Part shown: positions 1-5,186 of the stretch, piece by piece
Layout of the letters: every line of letters begins with the position of its first letter
Position numbering within the stretch: the stretch's first letter is position 1
IMG/VR virus record: IMGVR_UViG_2667527592_000010
Direction: 5' to 3' (one strand)
From: a virus
Taxonomy: Duplodnaviria; Heunggongvirae; Uroviricota; Caudoviricetes
Length of the DNA: 5,186 nt
Position numbers and translations under genes: made by a program
The notes under the pieces: generated by a model
Seen by the model: only the letters and a program-made list of their open reading frames with translations
The model's database searches: none
What the model was told of the DNA's origin: nothing

Positions 1-114
1 TTTACTGAAGATGCCATTAACAAGAGAAAACAAGAACGGGAGCTATTAAATAAAATATGCATTGTTTCAATGCTGGCTCGTTTACGTCTGATGCCAAAAG
101 GATGTGCACAATGA
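1..114 (+). CDS. 3' end of an upstream prophage gene (partial; start lies outside the window); product unknown
   Basis: Frame 1 is open from the window edge (…FTEDAINKRKQERELLNKICIVSMLARLRLMPKGCAQ*) to TGA at 112-114. The stop overlaps the ATG at 111 of the next gene (ATGA), a typical coupled-operon junction. No start codon is visible in the window, so the call rests on the open frame and the junction only. Confidence 0.3.
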   Translation, partial: FTEDAINKRKQERELLNKICIVSMLARLRLMPKGCAQ

Positions 115-314
115 ATTCAGCATTTGCGCTTGTTCTGACAGTTTTTCTTGTTTCCGGAGAGCCAGTTGATATTGCAGTCAGTGTTCACAGGACAATGCAG
201 GAGTGTATGACTGCAGCAACCGAACAGAAAATTCCCGGTAACTGTTACCCGGTTGATAAAGTTATTCGCATGGACAATAACGAAATCCCGGCAGGACTTA
301 AAGCAGCACCGTAA
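111..314 (+). CDS. Small hypothetical protein (67 aa) with N-terminal signal-peptide-like hydrophobic segment and two Cys; likely exported
   Basis: ATG at 111 is preceded by AAGGA (98-102) at about 8 nt spacing. The N-terminus MNSAFALVLTVFLVSGEP is a hydrophobic h-region with a possible signal peptidase I site after VSG and no lipobox. Stop is TAA at 312-314. The ORF track starts this frame at 57, but that start has no Shine-Dalgarno and would bury the hydrophobic segment. Confidence 0.55.
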   Translation: MNSAFALVLTVFLVSGEPVDIAVSVHRTMQECMTAATEQKIPGNCYPVDKVIRMDNNEIPAGLKAAP

Positions 315-394: not shown

Positions 395-2866
395 ATGAGT
401 AAAGTCTTTATTTGCGCCGCCATTCCGGACGAACAGGCAATAAAGGAAGAAGGTGCAGTTGCTGTAGCCACTGCCATTGAAGCCGGTGACGAACGCCGCG
501 CCCGTGCCAAATTTACCTGGCAATTCCTGGAGCGATATCCGGCTGCTCAGGACTGCGCTTATAAATTTCTTGTCTGCGAGGATAAACCCGGCATGCCCCG
601 CCCTGCTATCGACTCCTGGGATACCGAATATATGCAGGAAAACCGCTGGGATGAGGAATCCGCTTCCTTTATTCCGGTCGAACCAGAATCCGATCCGATG
701 AACGTCAATTTTGACAAGCTGGCCCCTGAAGTACAGAACGCTGTCATGGTTAAGTTCGGTACATGTGAAAACATCTCCGTTGATATGGTGATTAGTGCAC
801 AGGAACTGTTGCAGGAAGACATGGCAACATTCGACGGACATATCGTTGAAGCGTTGATGAAAATGCCAGAAGTTAACGCCATGTATCCGGAGCTTAAGCT
901 GCATGCCATCGGGTGGGTTAAACATAAATGTAAGCCTGGTGCCAAATGGCCCGAAATTCAGGCAGAGATGCGCATCTGGAAAAAACGTCGCGAAGGTGAA
1001 CGCAAGGAAACCGGAAAATACACGTCTGTTGTTGATCTCGCCCGCGCCAGAGCCAATCAACAGTACACTGAAAATTCAACAGGAAAAATCAACCCGGTCA
1101 TTGCTGCCACTCATCGCGAATACAAGCAGACATGGAAAACACTGGATGACGAACTGGCCTACGCTCTCTGGCCTGGTGATGTGGATGCCGGAAACATTGA
1201 CGGCAGCATCCATCGCTGGGCAAAAAATGAAGTTATCGACAACGACCGCGAAGACTGGAAGCGTATCTCGGCATCAATGCGCAAACAGCCTGATGCCCTT
1301 CGCTACGACCGCCAGACTATTTTTGGCCTTGTCCGTGAACGTCCGATCGACATTCACAAAGCCCCTGTGGCACTGAACAAATACATTACTGAATACCTGA
1401 CTACAAAGGGCGTGTTTGAAGATGAAGGAAGAAATCAGAGCGCAACTGATACTCTCTCGTCGCCAGTACCAGAAACTGATGCAGTGGAAACGGCAATTCC
1501 GGACAACGAAAAAACCGAATGCGAAGTGGAAGCCGAACCATCTGTAGAGCGTGAGGGACCGTTCTACTTCCTTTTCACCGATAAGGACGGCAAAAAATAC
1601 GGTCGCGCAAACAAACTTTCTGGTCTGGAAAAAGCACTGGCCTTGGGAGCTACGGAAATCACAAAAGAGGAATACTTCGCACGTAAAAACGGCACGCACT
1701 CAGGTTCACAACAAAATACTGGTGCATCTGACACGACCACACAACCAGAGCCGGTAAAAGTTACCGCTGACGAAGTAAACAAAATTATGCAGGCAGCCAA
1801 TATCAGCCAGCCTGACGCCGATAAGTTGCTTGCTGCCTCTCGCGGAGAATTTGTTGCAGGGATTAGCGACCCGAATGATCCGAAATGGGTGAAGGGGATT
1901 GAAACCCGCGATTCTGTAAACCAGAACCAGCAAGAATCGGAACAGAACGACCAGAAAGCGGAACAAAACAGTCAAAATGCGTTACAAAACGAGCCTGAAA
2001 CGAAACAACCTGAGCCAGTAGCGCAACAGGAACCGGAAAAAGTCTGCACCGCCTGCGGTCAGAGCGGTGGCGGCAACTGCCCTGATTGTGGCGCGGTGAT
2101 GGGCGACGCAACATACCAGGAAACATTCGATGAAGAGAATCAGGTTGAAGTTCAGGAAAATGATCCGGAGGAAACGGAAGGCGCTGAACATCCACACAAG
2201 GAGAACCCTGGCGGCAATCAGCATCACGCCAGCGATAATAAAACTGGCGAGGCGACAGATCCCTTAATTAAGGTGAATGGTCATCATAAGCTCACATCCA
2301 CCAGCAGAGCGGGGATTCATCTGATGATCGACCTTGAAACCATGGGAAAAAATCCCGATGCCCCGATTATCTCAATAGGCGCAATATTTTTCGATCCACA
2401 AACCGGAGATATGGGACCGGAATTTAGCAAGACCATCGATCTGGATACTGCTGGCGGAGTCATTGATCGTGACGTCATTAAATGGTGGCTAAAGCGATCA
2501 CGTGAAGCGCAGTCTGCCATTATGACCGATGAAATCCCGTTAGATGATGCACTACTGCAATTGCGGGAATTTATCGACGAAAACTCCGGTGAATTTTTTG
2601 TTCAGGTCTGGGGTAATGGGGCCAACTTCGACAACGTGATTTTACGCCGTTCATACGAACGACAGGGTATCCCCTGCCCGTGGCGCTACTGCAACGATCG
2701 CGATGTACGCACAATCGTTGAGCTGGGGAAAGCCATAGACTTCGATGCCAGAACTGCTATCCCATTCGAAGGTGAGCGCCATAATGCACTTGATGACGCT
2801 CGTTACCAGGCAAAATACGTTTCAGCTATCTGGCAAAAACTGATCCCGAGTCAGGCTGATTTTTAA
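395..2866 (+). CDS. Large multidomain phage nuclease (823 aa): N-terminal domain of unknown function, central block recalled as RecE (exonuclease VIII)-like, acidic Q/E/N-rich linker with a Cys4 zinc ribbon, and C-terminal DnaQ-like DEDDh 3'-5' exonuclease domain
   Basis: Single uninterrupted 2472-nt ORF with GAGG (381-384) about 10 nt upstream of ATG 395 and TAA at 2864-2866. C-terminal motifs are visible directly: Exo I LMIDLETMG (D646, E648), Exo II GNGANFDNVIL (D745), Exo III HNALDDARY (H796, D801). The central block KLLAASRGEFVAGISDPNDPKWVKGIETRD (aa 476-506) matches my recollection of a conserved block in Rac RecE; this is from memory and unverified. Confidence 0.9.
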   Translation: MSKVFICAAIPDEQAIKEEGAVAVATAIEAGDERRARAKFTWQFLERYPAAQDCAYKFLVCEDKPGMPRPAIDSWDTEYMQENRWDEESASFIPVEPESDPMNVNFDKLAPEVQNAVMVKFGTCENISVDMVISAQELLQEDMATFDGHIVEALMKMPEVNAMYPELKLHAIGWVKHKCKPGAKWPEIQAEMRIWKKRREGERKETGKYTSVVDLARARANQQYTENSTGKINPVIAATHREYKQTWKTLDDELAYALWPGDVDAGNIDGSIHRWAKNEVIDNDREDWKRISASMRKQPDALRYDRQTIFGLVRERPIDIHKAPVALNKYITEYLTTKGVFEDEGRNQSATDTLSSPVPETDAVETAIPDNEKTECEVEAEPSVEREGPFYFLFTDKDGKKYGRANKLSGLEKALALGATEITKEEYFARKNGTHSGSQQNTGASDTTTQPEPVKVTADEVNKIMQAANISQPDADKLLAASRGEFVAGISDPNDPKWVKGIETRDSVNQNQQESEQNDQKAEQNSQNALQNEPETKQPEPVAQQEPEKVCTACGQSGGGNCPDCGAVMGDATYQETFDEENQVEVQENDPEETEGAEHPHKENPGGNQHHASDNKTGEATDPLIKVNGHHKLTSTSRAGIHLMIDLETMGKNPDAPIISIGAIFFDPQTGDMGPEFSKTIDLDTAGGVIDRDVIKWWLKRSREAQSAIMTDEIPLDDALLQLREFIDENSGEFFVQVWGNGANFDNVILRRSYERQGIPCPWRYCNDRDVRTIVELGKAIDFDARTAIPFEGERHNALDDARYQAKYVSAIWQKLIPSQADF
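2306..2863 (+). other. DEDDh (DnaQ/RNase T-like) 3'-5' exonuclease domain within the 823-aa protein
   Basis: All three exonuclease motifs are present with normal spacing: D-x-E (nt 2330-2338), the FD motif (nt about 2618-2632) and H-x4-D (nt 2780-2797). Domain boundaries are approximate. Confidence 0.75.
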
Positions 2867-2924: not shown

Positions 2925-3128
2925 ATGAGCAGCTTATTTTTAACCGAAGATGAATTGCTAATATTAACGGGCTGCAAATATGCAAGCCACCAGCGAAAAT
3001 GGTTAATGGAAAACGGGCTTCCGTTCTATACCAATCGTAGTGGCAAACCGATTGTCAGCCGGGATCTATTTACCTGCAATAAAACTTTACCACCACGCGA
3101 GGTAGAGCCCAATTTTGGTGCGATCTGA
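2925..3128 (+). CDS. Small integrase-associated protein (67 aa), DUF4224-like; putative excisionase / recombination directionality factor
   Basis: ORF lies immediately upstream of int and its TGA stop (3126-3128) overlaps the int ATG (3128-3130) as TGATG. The sequence MSSLFLTEDELLILTGCKYASHQRKWLMENGLPF resembles, from memory, the small DUF4224 proteins commonly found next to lambdoid integrases. The Xis function is inferred from position and size, not shown. Confidence 0.65.
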   Translation: MSSLFLTEDELLILTGCKYASHQRKWLMENGLPFYTNRSGKPIVSRDLFTCNKTLPPREVEPNFGAI

Positions 3129-4153
3129 TGGGAAGACGAAGGAAAAATCCTGAACACGAAAAATTACCTCCAAATGTATACCCAAATAAATATAGTTATG
3201 TATGGAAACCAACATCCAGAGAATCTGTCACACTAACCGCCATCAAGGATGGTTTAGCTGCTTTATGGAAAAAGTATGAGGAAACTGTAAATAATCGCGA
3301 TCGTGCAATGACATTCGGTCGCTTGTGGGAAAAATTCCTCGCCAGCGCCTATTACAGTGACCTTAGTCCAAGAACACAAAAAGATTATCTGCAACATCAA
3401 AAAAAGTTGCTTGCCGTATTCGGTAAGGTACCAGCGGATTCCATAAAACCAGAACACATCCGTCGATACATGGACAAAAGAGGGGAGCAGAGTAAAACGC
3501 AAGCCAACCATGAAAAAAGCAGTATGTCCCGTGTTTACAGTTGGGGGTATGAGCGAGGGTACGTGAAGGCTAACCCATGTGCAGGTGTAAGTAAATTCAA
3601 GGCCAAAAACCGCGAACGATATGTAACCGACAAAGAATACCAGGCAGTATTAAGCGTTGCACCTCTTCCTGTTTTTATCGCAATGGAAATTGCCTATCTG
3701 TGTGCAGCGAGGGTTTCCGATGTGTTATCGCTGAAATGGGAACAGATTGGAAACGACGGGATATTCATCCAGCAAGGGAAAACCGGAAAAAAACAGATAA
3801 AAGCATGGAGCCCACGATTACAGGCAGCGATCGAAAAAGCAAAACAGTTACCAAAATCTGCCTATGTGATCAGCAATCAATACGGCAACCGATATATGTA
3901 CAAAGGCTTTAACGAAATGTGGGTAGATGCAAGAAATCGTGCTGGAAAAATTTCAGGTATTTTAACCGACTTCACCTTTCATGATCTGAAGGCGAAAGGA
4001 ATTTCAGACTATGAAGGAAGCAGCCGGGATAAGCAACTTTTCTCTGGTCACAAAACCGAAGGGCAAGTGCTAATCTATGACAGGAAGGTTAAAGTTTCAC
4101 CAACACTTGATGTCCCGTTACCTGAAAATATTCCAAGAAAATATTCCAAGTAA
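3128..4153 (+). CDS. int: Lambda-family tyrosine integrase (341 aa)
   Basis: N-terminus MGRRRKNPEHEKLPPNVYP parallels the lambda Int arm-binding N-terminus (MGRRR…LPPNLY, from memory). Catalytic-region signatures are present: R195 in ARVSDVLSLKW, H285-x-x-K288, H308 and Y317 in GHKTEGQVLIYDRK. It sits adjacent to a tRNA 3' end, with GGTG 8 nt upstream of the ATG and TAA at 4151-4153. Confidence 0.93.
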   Translation: MGRRRKNPEHEKLPPNVYPNKYSYVWKPTSRESVTLTAIKDGLAALWKKYEETVNNRDRAMTFGRLWEKFLASAYYSDLSPRTQKDYLQHQKKLLAVFGKVPADSIKPEHIRRYMDKRGEQSKTQANHEKSSMSRVYSWGYERGYVKANPCAGVSKFKAKNRERYVTDKEYQAVLSVAPLPVFIAMEIAYLCAARVSDVLSLKWEQIGNDGIFIQQGKTGKKQIKAWSPRLQAAIEKAKQLPKSAYVISNQYGNRYMYKGFNEMWVDARNRAGKISGILTDFTFHDLKAKGISDYEGSSRDKQLFSGHKTEGQVLIYDRKVKVSPTLDVPLPENIPRKYSK

Positions 4154-4205: not shown

Positions 4206-4295
4206 TGGCGGAGAGAGGGGGATTTGAACCCCCGGTGGAGTTGCCCCCACTCCGGTTTTCGAGACCGGTCCGTTCAGCCGCTCCGGCATCTCTCC
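4206..4295 (-). tRNA. serU: tRNA-Ser, anticodon CGA (type II tRNA with long variable arm), intact with encoded CCA
   Basis: Reverse complement of 4206..4295 reads GGAGAGATGCCGGAGCGGCTGAACGGACCGGTCTCGAAAACCGGAGTGGGGGCAACTCCACCGGGGGTTCAAATCCCCCTCTCTCCGCCA. It has a 7-bp acceptor stem, anticodon loop CTCGAAA, a 6-bp variable stem (GUGGGG/CUCCAC with one G-U pair), T-arm GGGGG-TTCAAAT-CCCCC, discriminator G and CCA. Confidence 0.95.
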
Positions 4296-4339: not shown

Positions 4340-4388
4340 GTCCCTGTCCGTGCAATTTTGTTCAAGTGACGAGTTTGCGAGCAAAACG

Positions 4389-5186
4389 ATGATTAAGTGG
4401 CCCTGGAAAGTACAAGAATCAGCACATCAAACTGCCCTTCCCTGGCAGGAAGCACTATCGATCCCCCTTTTAACGTGTCTGACAGAACAGGAACAAAGCA
4501 AATTGGTCGCTCTTGCCGAACGTTTTTTACAGCAAAAACGGCTTGTTCCTTTACAGGGCTTTGAGCTGAATTCATTAAGAAGCTGCCGGATAGCACTTCT
4601 ATTTTGCCTGCCCGTTCTGGAGTTAGGACTGGAATGGCTGGATGGTTTTCATGAAATCTTAATTTATCCTGCGCCATTTGTGGTCGATGATGAATGGGAA
4701 GACGATATCGGTCTGGTGCATAACCAACGTATTGTTCAGTCAGGTCAGAGCTGGCAGCAAGGGCCTATCGTTTTGAACTGGTTGGATATACAAGATTCTT
4801 TTGATGCTTCTGGTTTTAACCTGATTATTCATGAAGTCGCTCATAAGCTGGACACCCGTAACGGCGATCGCGCCAGCGGAGTTCCCTTTATTTCGTTGCG
4901 TGAGGTTGCTGGCTGGGAACACGATCTTCATGCTGCAATGAACAACATTCAGGAAGAAATCGAATTAGTTGGTGAGAATGCGGCGAGCATTGATGCTTAT
5001 GCTGCCAGTGATCCTGCTGAATGTTTTGCCGTACTTTCTGAATATTTCTTTAGCGCCCCAGAACTTTTTGCTCCTCGTTTCCCTTCATTGTGGCAACGTT
5101 TCTGTCAATTTTATCAACAAGATCCTTTGCAGAGACTGCATCACGCTAATGATACAGACTCGTTTTCGGCGACGAATGTTCATTAA
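4389..5186 (+). CDS. mtfA: MtfA (Mlc titration factor A), zinc-dependent peptidase with HEXXH motif; chromosomal gene
   Basis: The protein from ATG 4389 ([23 protein letters not shown]…HEVAHKLD…SATNVH) matches my memory of E. coli MtfA at about 265 aa. TAA is at 5184-5186. The ORF track's start at 4350 adds 13 codons that I consider unlikely to be translated. Confidence 0.93.

Follow-up and report, generated by a model that had tools for sequence, protein, structure and literature searches.

A 67-residue allele of ydfD (DUF1482) behind dicB in a lambdoid early-left operon

YdfD, a 63-residue protein encoded by the Qin prophage of Escherichia coli K-12, lyses nearly all cells in which it is over-expressed (PMC8835842); its toxicity has been re-confirmed (PMC9782134), and it is described as a lysis protein (PMC10448788). 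Because co-expression of either dicB or sulA blocks this lysis, cell division is needed for it to occur (PMC8835842). The gene is carried on a 1,608-nt ydfABC-dicFB-ydfD transcript that is under DicA repression (PMC10448788). When the dicBF operon is induced, the plating of lambda-vir falls to 4%, an effect that maps to dicB, whose deletion abolishes the protection, while loss of ydfD alters the EOP of lambda-vir only minimally (PMC6832061).

The target proposed for YdfD is IspG, an Fe-S enzyme of the MEP isoprenoid pathway, which was pulled down by YdfD, co-eluted with it on SEC, bound it with an ITC Kd of 18 uM and, as cytoplasmic IspG-YFP, gave in vivo FRET with YdfD-CFP (PMC8835842). The IspG-binding part was assigned to the hydrophobic N-terminal 28 residues of YdfD; Cys mutants still bind IspG, and cells are rescued by ispG over-expression or by added HMBPP (PMC8835842). 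The loss of one residue at either end of the protein, or mutation of L63, abolishes killing (PMC8835842), and the C-terminal domain alone, according to Masuda 2016 as summarized in PMC8835842, keeps a reduced toxicity.

The window analyzed here, i.e., the whole stretch of 5,186 nucleotides, contains near its left edge an open reading frame that extends on the + strand from an ATG at 111-113 to a TAA at 312-314 and specifies the 67-aa product MNSAFALVLTVFLVSGEPVDIAVSVHRTMQECMTAATEQKIPGNCYPVDKVIRMDNNEIPAGLKAAP. This frame is almost certainly a full-length, 67-aa allele of ydfD. Its product matches PF07358 (DUF1482) with 89.8 bits against a cut-off of 25 (E 1e-25), residues 4-61 covering all of the profile (positions 1-57 of 57), and it matches phrog_1092 with an E-value of 5.8e-37. 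Identity to the K-12 Qin protein, which RefSeq names 'lysis protein', is 94% over 63 residues and reaches 98% in the core (residues 1-52). RefSeq calls the same position ydfD or DUF1482 in near-identical genomes, and the exact 67-aa protein is found in the same context on 18 public contigs. The gene itself is already known: it is annotated in thousands of E. coli genomes, and both the phenotype of the K-12 allele and a proposed target have been published. The coordinates of the features discussed below are collected in Table 1.

Table 1. Positions of ydfD, its sequence elements and the adjoining genes in the 5,186-nt window.
Feature	Position	Strand	Evidence or remark
dicB 3' end (last 37 codons and TGA), running off the window	1..114	+	PF05358 DicB, E 2e-20
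Shine-Dalgarno-like AAAGGA, inside the dicB 3' end	97..102	+	8 nt before the ydfD ATG
ATGA start/stop overlap of dicB and ydfD	111..114	+	4 nt; read from sequence
ydfD, 67-aa allele (DUF1482)	111..314	+	TAA stop included; PF07358, phrog_1092, identity to K-12 YdfD
Hydrophobic N-terminal segment AFALVLTVFLV, codons 4-14	120..152	+	modeled beta-strand 1
Cys32 codon, TGT, in QECMTAA	204..206	+	Cys in 184/187 family sequences
Cys45 codon, TGT, in GNCYPV	243..245	+	Cys in 179/187 family sequences
KAAP tail, codons 64-67	300..311	+	not in the characterized 63-aa K-12 protein
823-aa exonuclease, full-length form of K-12 pseudogene ydfE	395..2866	+	PF16473 Rv2179c-like, E 6e-65; YdfE_N and YdfE_C domains; phrog_2082
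Excisionase-like DUF4224 gene (xis)	2925..3128	+	PF13986, E 1.9e-15; phrog_1266
Tyrosine integrase	3128..4153	+	PF00589
tRNA-Ser(CGA), prophage attachment site	4206..4295	-	ARAGORN; phage-borne part to ~4267

The frame is a real gene and did not arise by chance. In addition to the DUF1482 match, positions 60-330 are matched in 3963 of 5426 complete E. coli genomes, and when ydfD alleles are compared, pN/pS is about 0.2-0.5 in those pairs that have diverged more. Homologues down to 31% identity begin one to five residues ahead of a conserved [FY]AL motif, which identifies position 111 as the true start. An in-frame ATG at position 57, which would yield an 85-aa product, was considered and rejected: it lies inside dicB, and both the homologues and the Pfam profile agree with a start at 111. 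Some metagenome gene callers use the ATG at 57 as the start of ydfD.

The reading frame that enters the window from the left ends in ...KGCAQ, and its translation is identical to the C-terminus of K-12 DicB. The same 4-nt overlap between dicB and ydfD is annotated in both K-12 Qin and AR_0089, and the AAAGGA element within the end of dicB is unchanged across these two in a DNA alignment. On the 3' side of ydfD, the search for a terminator returned only a weak 5-bp hairpin at 339-352 (fold z-score -0.55).

The order of genes in the window (dicB'-ydfD-exonuclease-xis-int-tRNA-mtfA) is that of the left arm of a lambdoid prophage, and E. coli CP076714.1 is 100% identical to the window. Six public loci, that of CP076714.1 among them, share an arrangement in which a cI-like repressor/cro/ydaT is followed by ydfA, (ydfB), ydfC, the DicF RNA, dicB, ydfD, the exonuclease and the DUF4224 xis, with DicF RNA present upstream of dicB in the identical locus among them (L006). 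The tRNA-Ser/mtfA pair comes next in five of the six, int being called in four of these; the flank of the sixth (L008) differs past the attachment-site boundary, where it and the window part company after 4267. The dicB-ydfD-exonuclease block is also present in phage genome records such as Tritos, HannyBb, mEp460 and vB_EcoS-640R1, and in these phages ydfD occupies the early-left region, where its neighbors are exonuclease, xis and int, at a distance from every lysis cassette. By this gene order, ydfD is the last small gene of a DicA/cI-repressed dicBF early-left operon in a lambdoid prophage that sits at tRNA-Ser beside mtfA.

An earlier note, written from the sequence of this DNA, had taken the 67-aa frame at 111-314 for a real small gene of a temperate-phage early operon, and the DUF1482 match and the synteny bear this out. 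Its proposal that the ATGA at 111-114 couples the gene to one lying off the window agrees with the finding that the upstream gene is dicB, whose TGA occupies 112-114, and the check that it advised, of homologues and their neighborhoods, shows the frame to be conserved in related prophages, both in the six loci and in the phage genomes. Its statement that the gene lies immediately upstream of a nuclease needs amending: the exonuclease is indeed the next gene, but its start (395) is separated from ydfD by a gap of 80 nt.

Among distant members of the family (31-53% identity), the gene again follows closely on cI/cro on every contig that extends far enough to include this flank. These homologues are preceded by a small open reading frame of 41-67 aa, which meets them in a 4-nt (ATGA) or 1-nt overlap or leaves a 2-nt gap. 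A conserved toxin/antidote pair of DicB and YdfD can be discarded, in that the upstream frames of the distant homologues are unrelated to DicB and mostly also to each other. What is conserved is the tight packing with a small upstream frame and not the specific DicB partner.

DUF1482 is a small family: when 1.84 billion representative proteins were scanned exhaustively with HMMER, only 39 matched at E<=0.001. That library carries no organism names; in separate word-indexed searches, every match that bears an organism name is from Escherichia or Shigella. Four repeat proteins of 764-1598 aa from the representative library (P0134, P0136, P0141 and P0148) were set aside, their scores being sums of weak matches to unrelated repeats. 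The window protein shows the complete family signature ([FY]ALV N-terminus, Gly16, Cys32 and Cys45); L7, C32 and C45 are invariant in an alignment of 25 sequences that reaches down to 31% identity, and A6, L7, G16, C32 and C45 are invariant in a set of 14 diverse members. Searches beyond the family offered no clue to function: NCBIfam has no model for the window protein, a PDB sequence search gave no match at E<=10, and Foldseek found nothing below E=1 in the PDB and only uncharacterized small phage proteins in BFVD, none at E<=0.001 (best 0.005) and one of them a DUF1482 member. BFVD holds many uncharacterized phage proteins of 47-70 aa with a similar small fold.

The new detail offered by this locus lies at the C-terminus. 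The family has 63-aa and 67-aa classes, and the K-12-type alleles differ by one extra T (CTTTAAA vs. CTTAAA, in the context GGT CTT TAA AAC vs. GGA CTT AAA GCA in the window), which places a TAA directly after Leu63 and removes the tail. An out-of-frame remnant of the lost tail, AAA ACA G(T/C)(T/A) CCG TAA or KT(V/A)P-stop, is kept in K-12, AR_0089, Tritos and 640R1. Alleles of 67 aa that end in GLKTAP are common, and members of the 67-aa class occur widely across E. coli, E. albertii and E. marmotae. The 63-aa protein on which experiments were done is a shortened version of this common 67-aa form. Whereas Qin-type proteins end at Leu63, the window allele runs on through KAAP to 67 aa and keeps the tail that the characterized K-12 form lost. 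It differs from the tested K-12 protein by V6A, H53R, Q54M and I57N as well as by the tail, so that a K-12-type core, with only V6A in residues 1-52, is joined to an end of the 67-aa class (R53, M54, N57, KAAP). C-terminal tails across the family are of variable length, poorly conserved and modeled with low pLDDT, a pattern that suggests tolerance of variation at this end.

The earlier note described the N-terminus as signal-peptide-like and without a lipobox. The segment is hydrophobic, the best 9-residue Kyte-Doolittle mean being 3.10 (residues 6-14), and no lipobox is found at the N-terminus of the window protein. The note had gone on to propose an exported mature part whose two Cys could form a disulfide in the periplasm. 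In its fullest form, this explanation posits cleavage by the Sec pathway (e.g., VSG|EP after residue 16), releasing a periplasmic protein of about 50 aa with a Cys32-Cys45 disulfide that serves in superinfection exclusion or receptor blocking. It can draw on the apolar run A4-V14 (11 residues), which has the length of an h-region and is followed by V-S-G|E in the manner of a c-region, V14-S15-G16 fitting the -3/-1 rule with an acidic residue at +1; on the invariance of both Cys; on the adjoining dicB, a genuine phage-exclusion factor (PMC6832061); and on lysis phenotypes that are compatible with an envelope target. Nonetheless, we consider it highly improbable that YdfD is exported, and equally so that this explanation as a whole is correct. 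The window protein begins MNSA, and neither here nor in 12 of 14 diverse homologues is there any K or R ahead of the hydrophobic core to form a positive n-region; in one of the two exceptions bearing K or R, an internal Met stands at the canonical start position. Many homologues have N-T-G at the would-be cleavage site, which is not a good -3/-1 site. A signal peptide usually evolves more quickly than the protein that it precedes, but in this family conservation is highest at residues 5-11 (FALVLTV), with a mean pairwise identity of 0.66 vs. 0.36 for residues 17-52. The segment also forms a confident core beta-strand in both AF2 models that we made: the window protein, with a mean pLDDT of 82 (84-93 over residues 1-50), is predicted to adopt a beta-beta-alpha-beta topology (E4-12 / E18-26 / H29-39 / E44-48), and a 37%-identical homologue is given the same topology at a pLDDT of 85. 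The agreement shows that the two models are consistent but does not amount to separate proof, the underlying alignments being shallow (25 and 15 sequences) and sharing members. Moreover, residues 12 and 18, which face each other where the modeled hairpin closes, are both Cys in 3 of 187 sequences (YebW, P0145 and P0155), and neither is ever Cys without the other, which speaks against cleavage because a Cys in a cleaved signal peptide has no reason to pair with one in the mature part. GFP-family proteins that are exported through Sec do not fluoresce. YdfD-CFP, a C-terminal fusion, does fluoresce and shows FRET with a cytoplasmic enzyme; His-, GST- or MBP-tagged YdfD (each tag N-terminal) was recovered soluble without detergent; and deltaN1, deltaN2 and an N-terminal point mutant all lost killing (PMC8835842), findings that count against both the signal peptide and a periplasmic location. 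Superinfection exclusion, which the note had also suggested, is not borne out either: lambda resistance belongs to dicB and is barely altered by deletion of ydfD (PMC6832061), and PADLOC gives no match for YdfD. The note fared better with a role in host modulation, in that the published YdfD acts on the host through division-dependent lysis (PMC8835842), and with its two Cys (QECMTAA and GNCYPV), which are placed as it said and whose invariance in the 25-sequence alignment marks them as important.

A hydrophobic N-terminus that is not cleaved might still enter a membrane. In the model put forward in the first YdfD paper, residues ~1-22 would lie in the inner membrane and the C-terminal 40-45 residues would block a membrane-associated step of wall synthesis or division, as phiX174 E does with MraY and LysM with MurJ; the pull-down of IspG would then be an artefact caused by a sticky hydrophobic peptide. 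The hydropathy over residues 5-23 (1.87 in a 19-residue Kyte-Doolittle window) exceeds the classical threshold of 1.6, and both faces of strand 1 are hydrophobic, a property equally compatible with a soluble monomer and with an interface to a membrane or within an oligomer. The division dependence of lysis and the reduced toxicity that the C-terminal domain alone retains (Masuda 2016 as summarized in PMC8835842) agree with this view, as do the weakness of the IspG interaction (Kd 18 uM) and the fact that inhibition of IspG was put forward without an enzymatic assay. We nevertheless judge a membrane anchor unlikely: its span would have to hold the invariant Gly16 together with Glu17, Pro18 and Asp20, the uninterrupted apolar run being only 11 residues long; AF2 predicts a beta-hairpin and not a helix; and YdfD was purified without detergent, the cleaved protein being concentrated to 90 uM, and rescue by ispG over-expression has been reported (PMC8835842). 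From the models and the pattern of conservation, we infer that the hydrophobic N-terminus is retained as part of a small hairpin/helix/strand domain. Membrane association or oligomerization through the hydrophobic face of the sheet is plausible, and in the modeled fold this exposed face probably drives self-association or peripheral binding to a membrane or a partner. The invariant Cys pair is suggestive in another way: one would sooner expect it of a disulfide or a metal site than of a simple inhibitor in the cytoplasm. For annotation, caution is advised: the hydrophobic N-terminus of YdfD should not be labeled a signal peptide or a transmembrane anchor without experiment.

Taken together, it seems reasonably probable that the window encodes an intracellular toxin of the phage early operon that kills or modulates the host, with division-dependent lysis and an IspG step. 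The gene identity, operon position, coupling signals, conservation pattern and predicted fold come from our analysis of the window; the lysis, its masking by DicB and the interaction with IspG are taken from the literature on the K-12 and BL21 allele. The ATGA overlap, along with the Shine-Dalgarno element inside dicB, suggests that ribosomes finishing dicB would re-initiate on ydfD, such that DicB and YdfD would be made together. By extension from the 94%-identical K-12 protein, excess YdfD would cause rapid, division-dependent lysis, which co-made DicB (or SulA) would mask by halting division; lysis would then ensue only once YdfD outruns DicB or division resumes. The final step, proposed in one study, is that YdfD would bind and inhibit cytoplasmic IspG and thereby starve the cell of isoprenoids and of the undecaprenyl-phosphate carrier. 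To this mechanism we assign a little short of an even chance. It is the weakest link of the scheme, coming from one laboratory and involving a Kd of 18 uM and binding through a sticky hydrophobic stretch of 28 residues; the rescue by HMBPP is surprising for an externally added, charged diphosphate, whose uptake is doubtful. The question has some reach, in that IspG as a true phage lysis target would bear on antibiotic-target work, and it hinges on the compartment of YdfD and on the role of its Cys pair. On this reading, YdfD would be neither a secreted factor nor part of the regular lysis cassette of the phage: its early-left position, between dicB and exonuclease/xis/int, and the lack of a convincing transmembrane helix do not fit a holin.

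Since the Leu63 terminus is reported to be critical for killing, lysis by the 67-aa form is a putative activity in this scheme, though the point is a minor one. Taken to its extreme, the argument would hold that lysis is not the main role of the natural 67-aa form, the 63-aa protein of K-12 being a hyper-toxic frameshift truncation, and that the full-length protein acts more mildly, e.g., by tuning host isoprenoid/Fe-S metabolism or by modulating DicB and division during lytic growth. The single inserted T and the KT(V/A)P-stop remnant still present behind it are in line with such a history, as is the wide occurrence of 67-aa alleles in three Escherichia species; the 63-aa form is reported to depend very sharply on its last residue for killing (PMC8835842), and ydfD lies early-left beside exonuclease, xis and int, far from the lysis cassettes. 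Yet the near-identity to the lytic K-12 protein through residue 52, and homologue tails of widely varying length and low pLDDT, suggesting tolerance, lead us to regard it as a very unlikely account. Only slightly less improbable is a broader proposal, in which the DUF1482 proteins are neither secreted nor membrane proteins but soluble beta-beta-alpha-beta mini-proteins that engage the Fe-S enzyme IspG through a metal or redox site made up of their invariant Cys pair (or of four Cys in the YebW branch), and in which the 67-aa form is native and the frameshift-truncated 63-aa form has altered, possibly exaggerated toxicity. Within that proposal, the 63-aa derivative might be partly restored by +1 slippage at the CUU-UAA-A site.

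Compared with systems already described, the intracellular toxin that we favor for the window is closest to K-12 Qin YdfD (b1576), with which the gene shares the ATGA overlap with dicB, a place upstream of a ydfE-type exonuclease and the invariant Cys pair. Qin, however, is a decayed element in which ydfE is a pseudogene disrupted by IS2, whereas the prophage of the window has an uninterrupted exonuclease along with xis and int open reading frames and lies at tRNA-Ser/mtfA. The K-12 paralogue YebW (b1837) is of similar length and shares the MFALVL... N-terminus, with which it begins directly, as well as Gly16 and the two invariant Cys; in contrast, it is encoded beside yebV and pphA and not after dicB, has an additional Cys pair at the base of the hairpin, shows less than 40% identity, and has no reported lysis phenotype.

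An analogy has also been drawn with the single-gene lysis proteins (phiX174 E/MraY, Qbeta A2/MurA and phage M LysM/MurJ), which are likewise small and, by cutting off the supply of wall precursors without degrading the wall, lyse cells in a growth- or division-dependent way (PMC8835842). Each of those proteins is the only lysis factor of a very small ssDNA or ssRNA phage, whereas ydfD comes from a dsDNA lambdoid phage with a genome of 45-53 kb and lies in its early-left operon; the reported target of YdfD is the cytoplasmic IspG, and the protein is without sequence or fold relationship to any of them. Lambda Kil and Qin DicB are, like YdfD, small, toxic, host-modulating proteins of a repressor-controlled early-left operon. 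DicB acts through MinC and FtsZ and blocks ManYZ-dependent phage entry, whereas YdfD has no measurable part in exclusion (PMC8835842, PMC6832061); and where division inhibitors of the lambda Kil/DicB type cause cells to filament, YdfD lyses them.

The tRNA-Ser gene that serves as the attachment site of this prophage is itself a composite of phage and host sequence. Alignment of the window with L008, a comparison locus carrying the same phage arm, revealed near-identity up to position 4267 (nine scattered mismatches) and divergence from 4268, which indicates that the 3′ portion of the gene, about 62 nt, derives from the prophage and its 5′ part from the host. In L008, the phage arm adjoins other DNA, with one GIY-YIG and one resolvase gene. 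The integrase and the excisionase-like gene that precedes it overlap by 1 nt (TGATG), and the integrase is intact in the window but frameshifted in AR_0089, the closest complete RefSeq genome. On the host side, the mtfA stop codon is the exact end of the window, and RefSeq annotation of the homologous locus places the mtfA start at an ATG at 4389, as opposed to the GTG chosen in the mechanical ORF list.

Features of the window and of comparison loci
Feature	Location	Strand	Remarks
ORF, 176 aa	L003-L007, 6825-7355	minus	phrog_1244 (unknown function); upstream of window
Exonuclease, 823 aa	395-2866		YdfE_N and YdfE_C domains; C-terminal Rv2179c-like DEDDh 3′-5′ exonuclease domain
Excisionase-like gene	2925-3128		DUF4224
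Integrase	3128-4153
tRNA-Ser	4206-4295	minus	CGA; phage/host boundary near 4267
mtfA	4350-5186		mechanical ORF list; start GTG 4350
yebW	L009 (K-12), 5122-5313		chromosomal DUF1482 paralogue

The exonuclease is the intact form of a gene, ydfE, that persists in K-12 as an IS2-disrupted pseudogene, and contains a zinc-ribbon-like CxxC...CxxC motif (CTACGQSGGGNCPDCG; about 2047-2094). Because its match to the NCBIfam exodeoxyribonuclease VIII model is only partial (284 bits vs. a cut-off of 1269), the common 'exonuclease VIII' label is doubtful. In source-type prophages, the phrog_1244 ORF lies between ydfC and DicF on the opposite strand. K-12 Qin lacks this ORF, which may be a moron insertion.

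The chromosomal paralogue of YdfD, YebW, is encoded next to yebV and pphA, where no prophage is annotated. Its N-terminus begins straight away with the conserved FALVL motif, and it has four cysteines (C9, C15, C29 and C43), the additional pair of which maps to the base of the hairpin in the predicted fold.

The 63-aa alleles of ydfD result from a single additional T in CTT(T)AAA and retain an out-of-frame KT(V/A)P-stop remnant (window 294-314 vs. 5975-5998 of L002, and likewise L001, L021 and L022). That a +1 slip at their stop codon and its surroundings, CUU UAA A, would restore a 67-aa product in these alleles is pure speculation, and the idea does not apply to the 67-aa allele of the window. 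The 63-aa alleles share their P-site codon, and its placement before the stop, with prfB, whose site of +1 frameshifting reads CUU UGA C.
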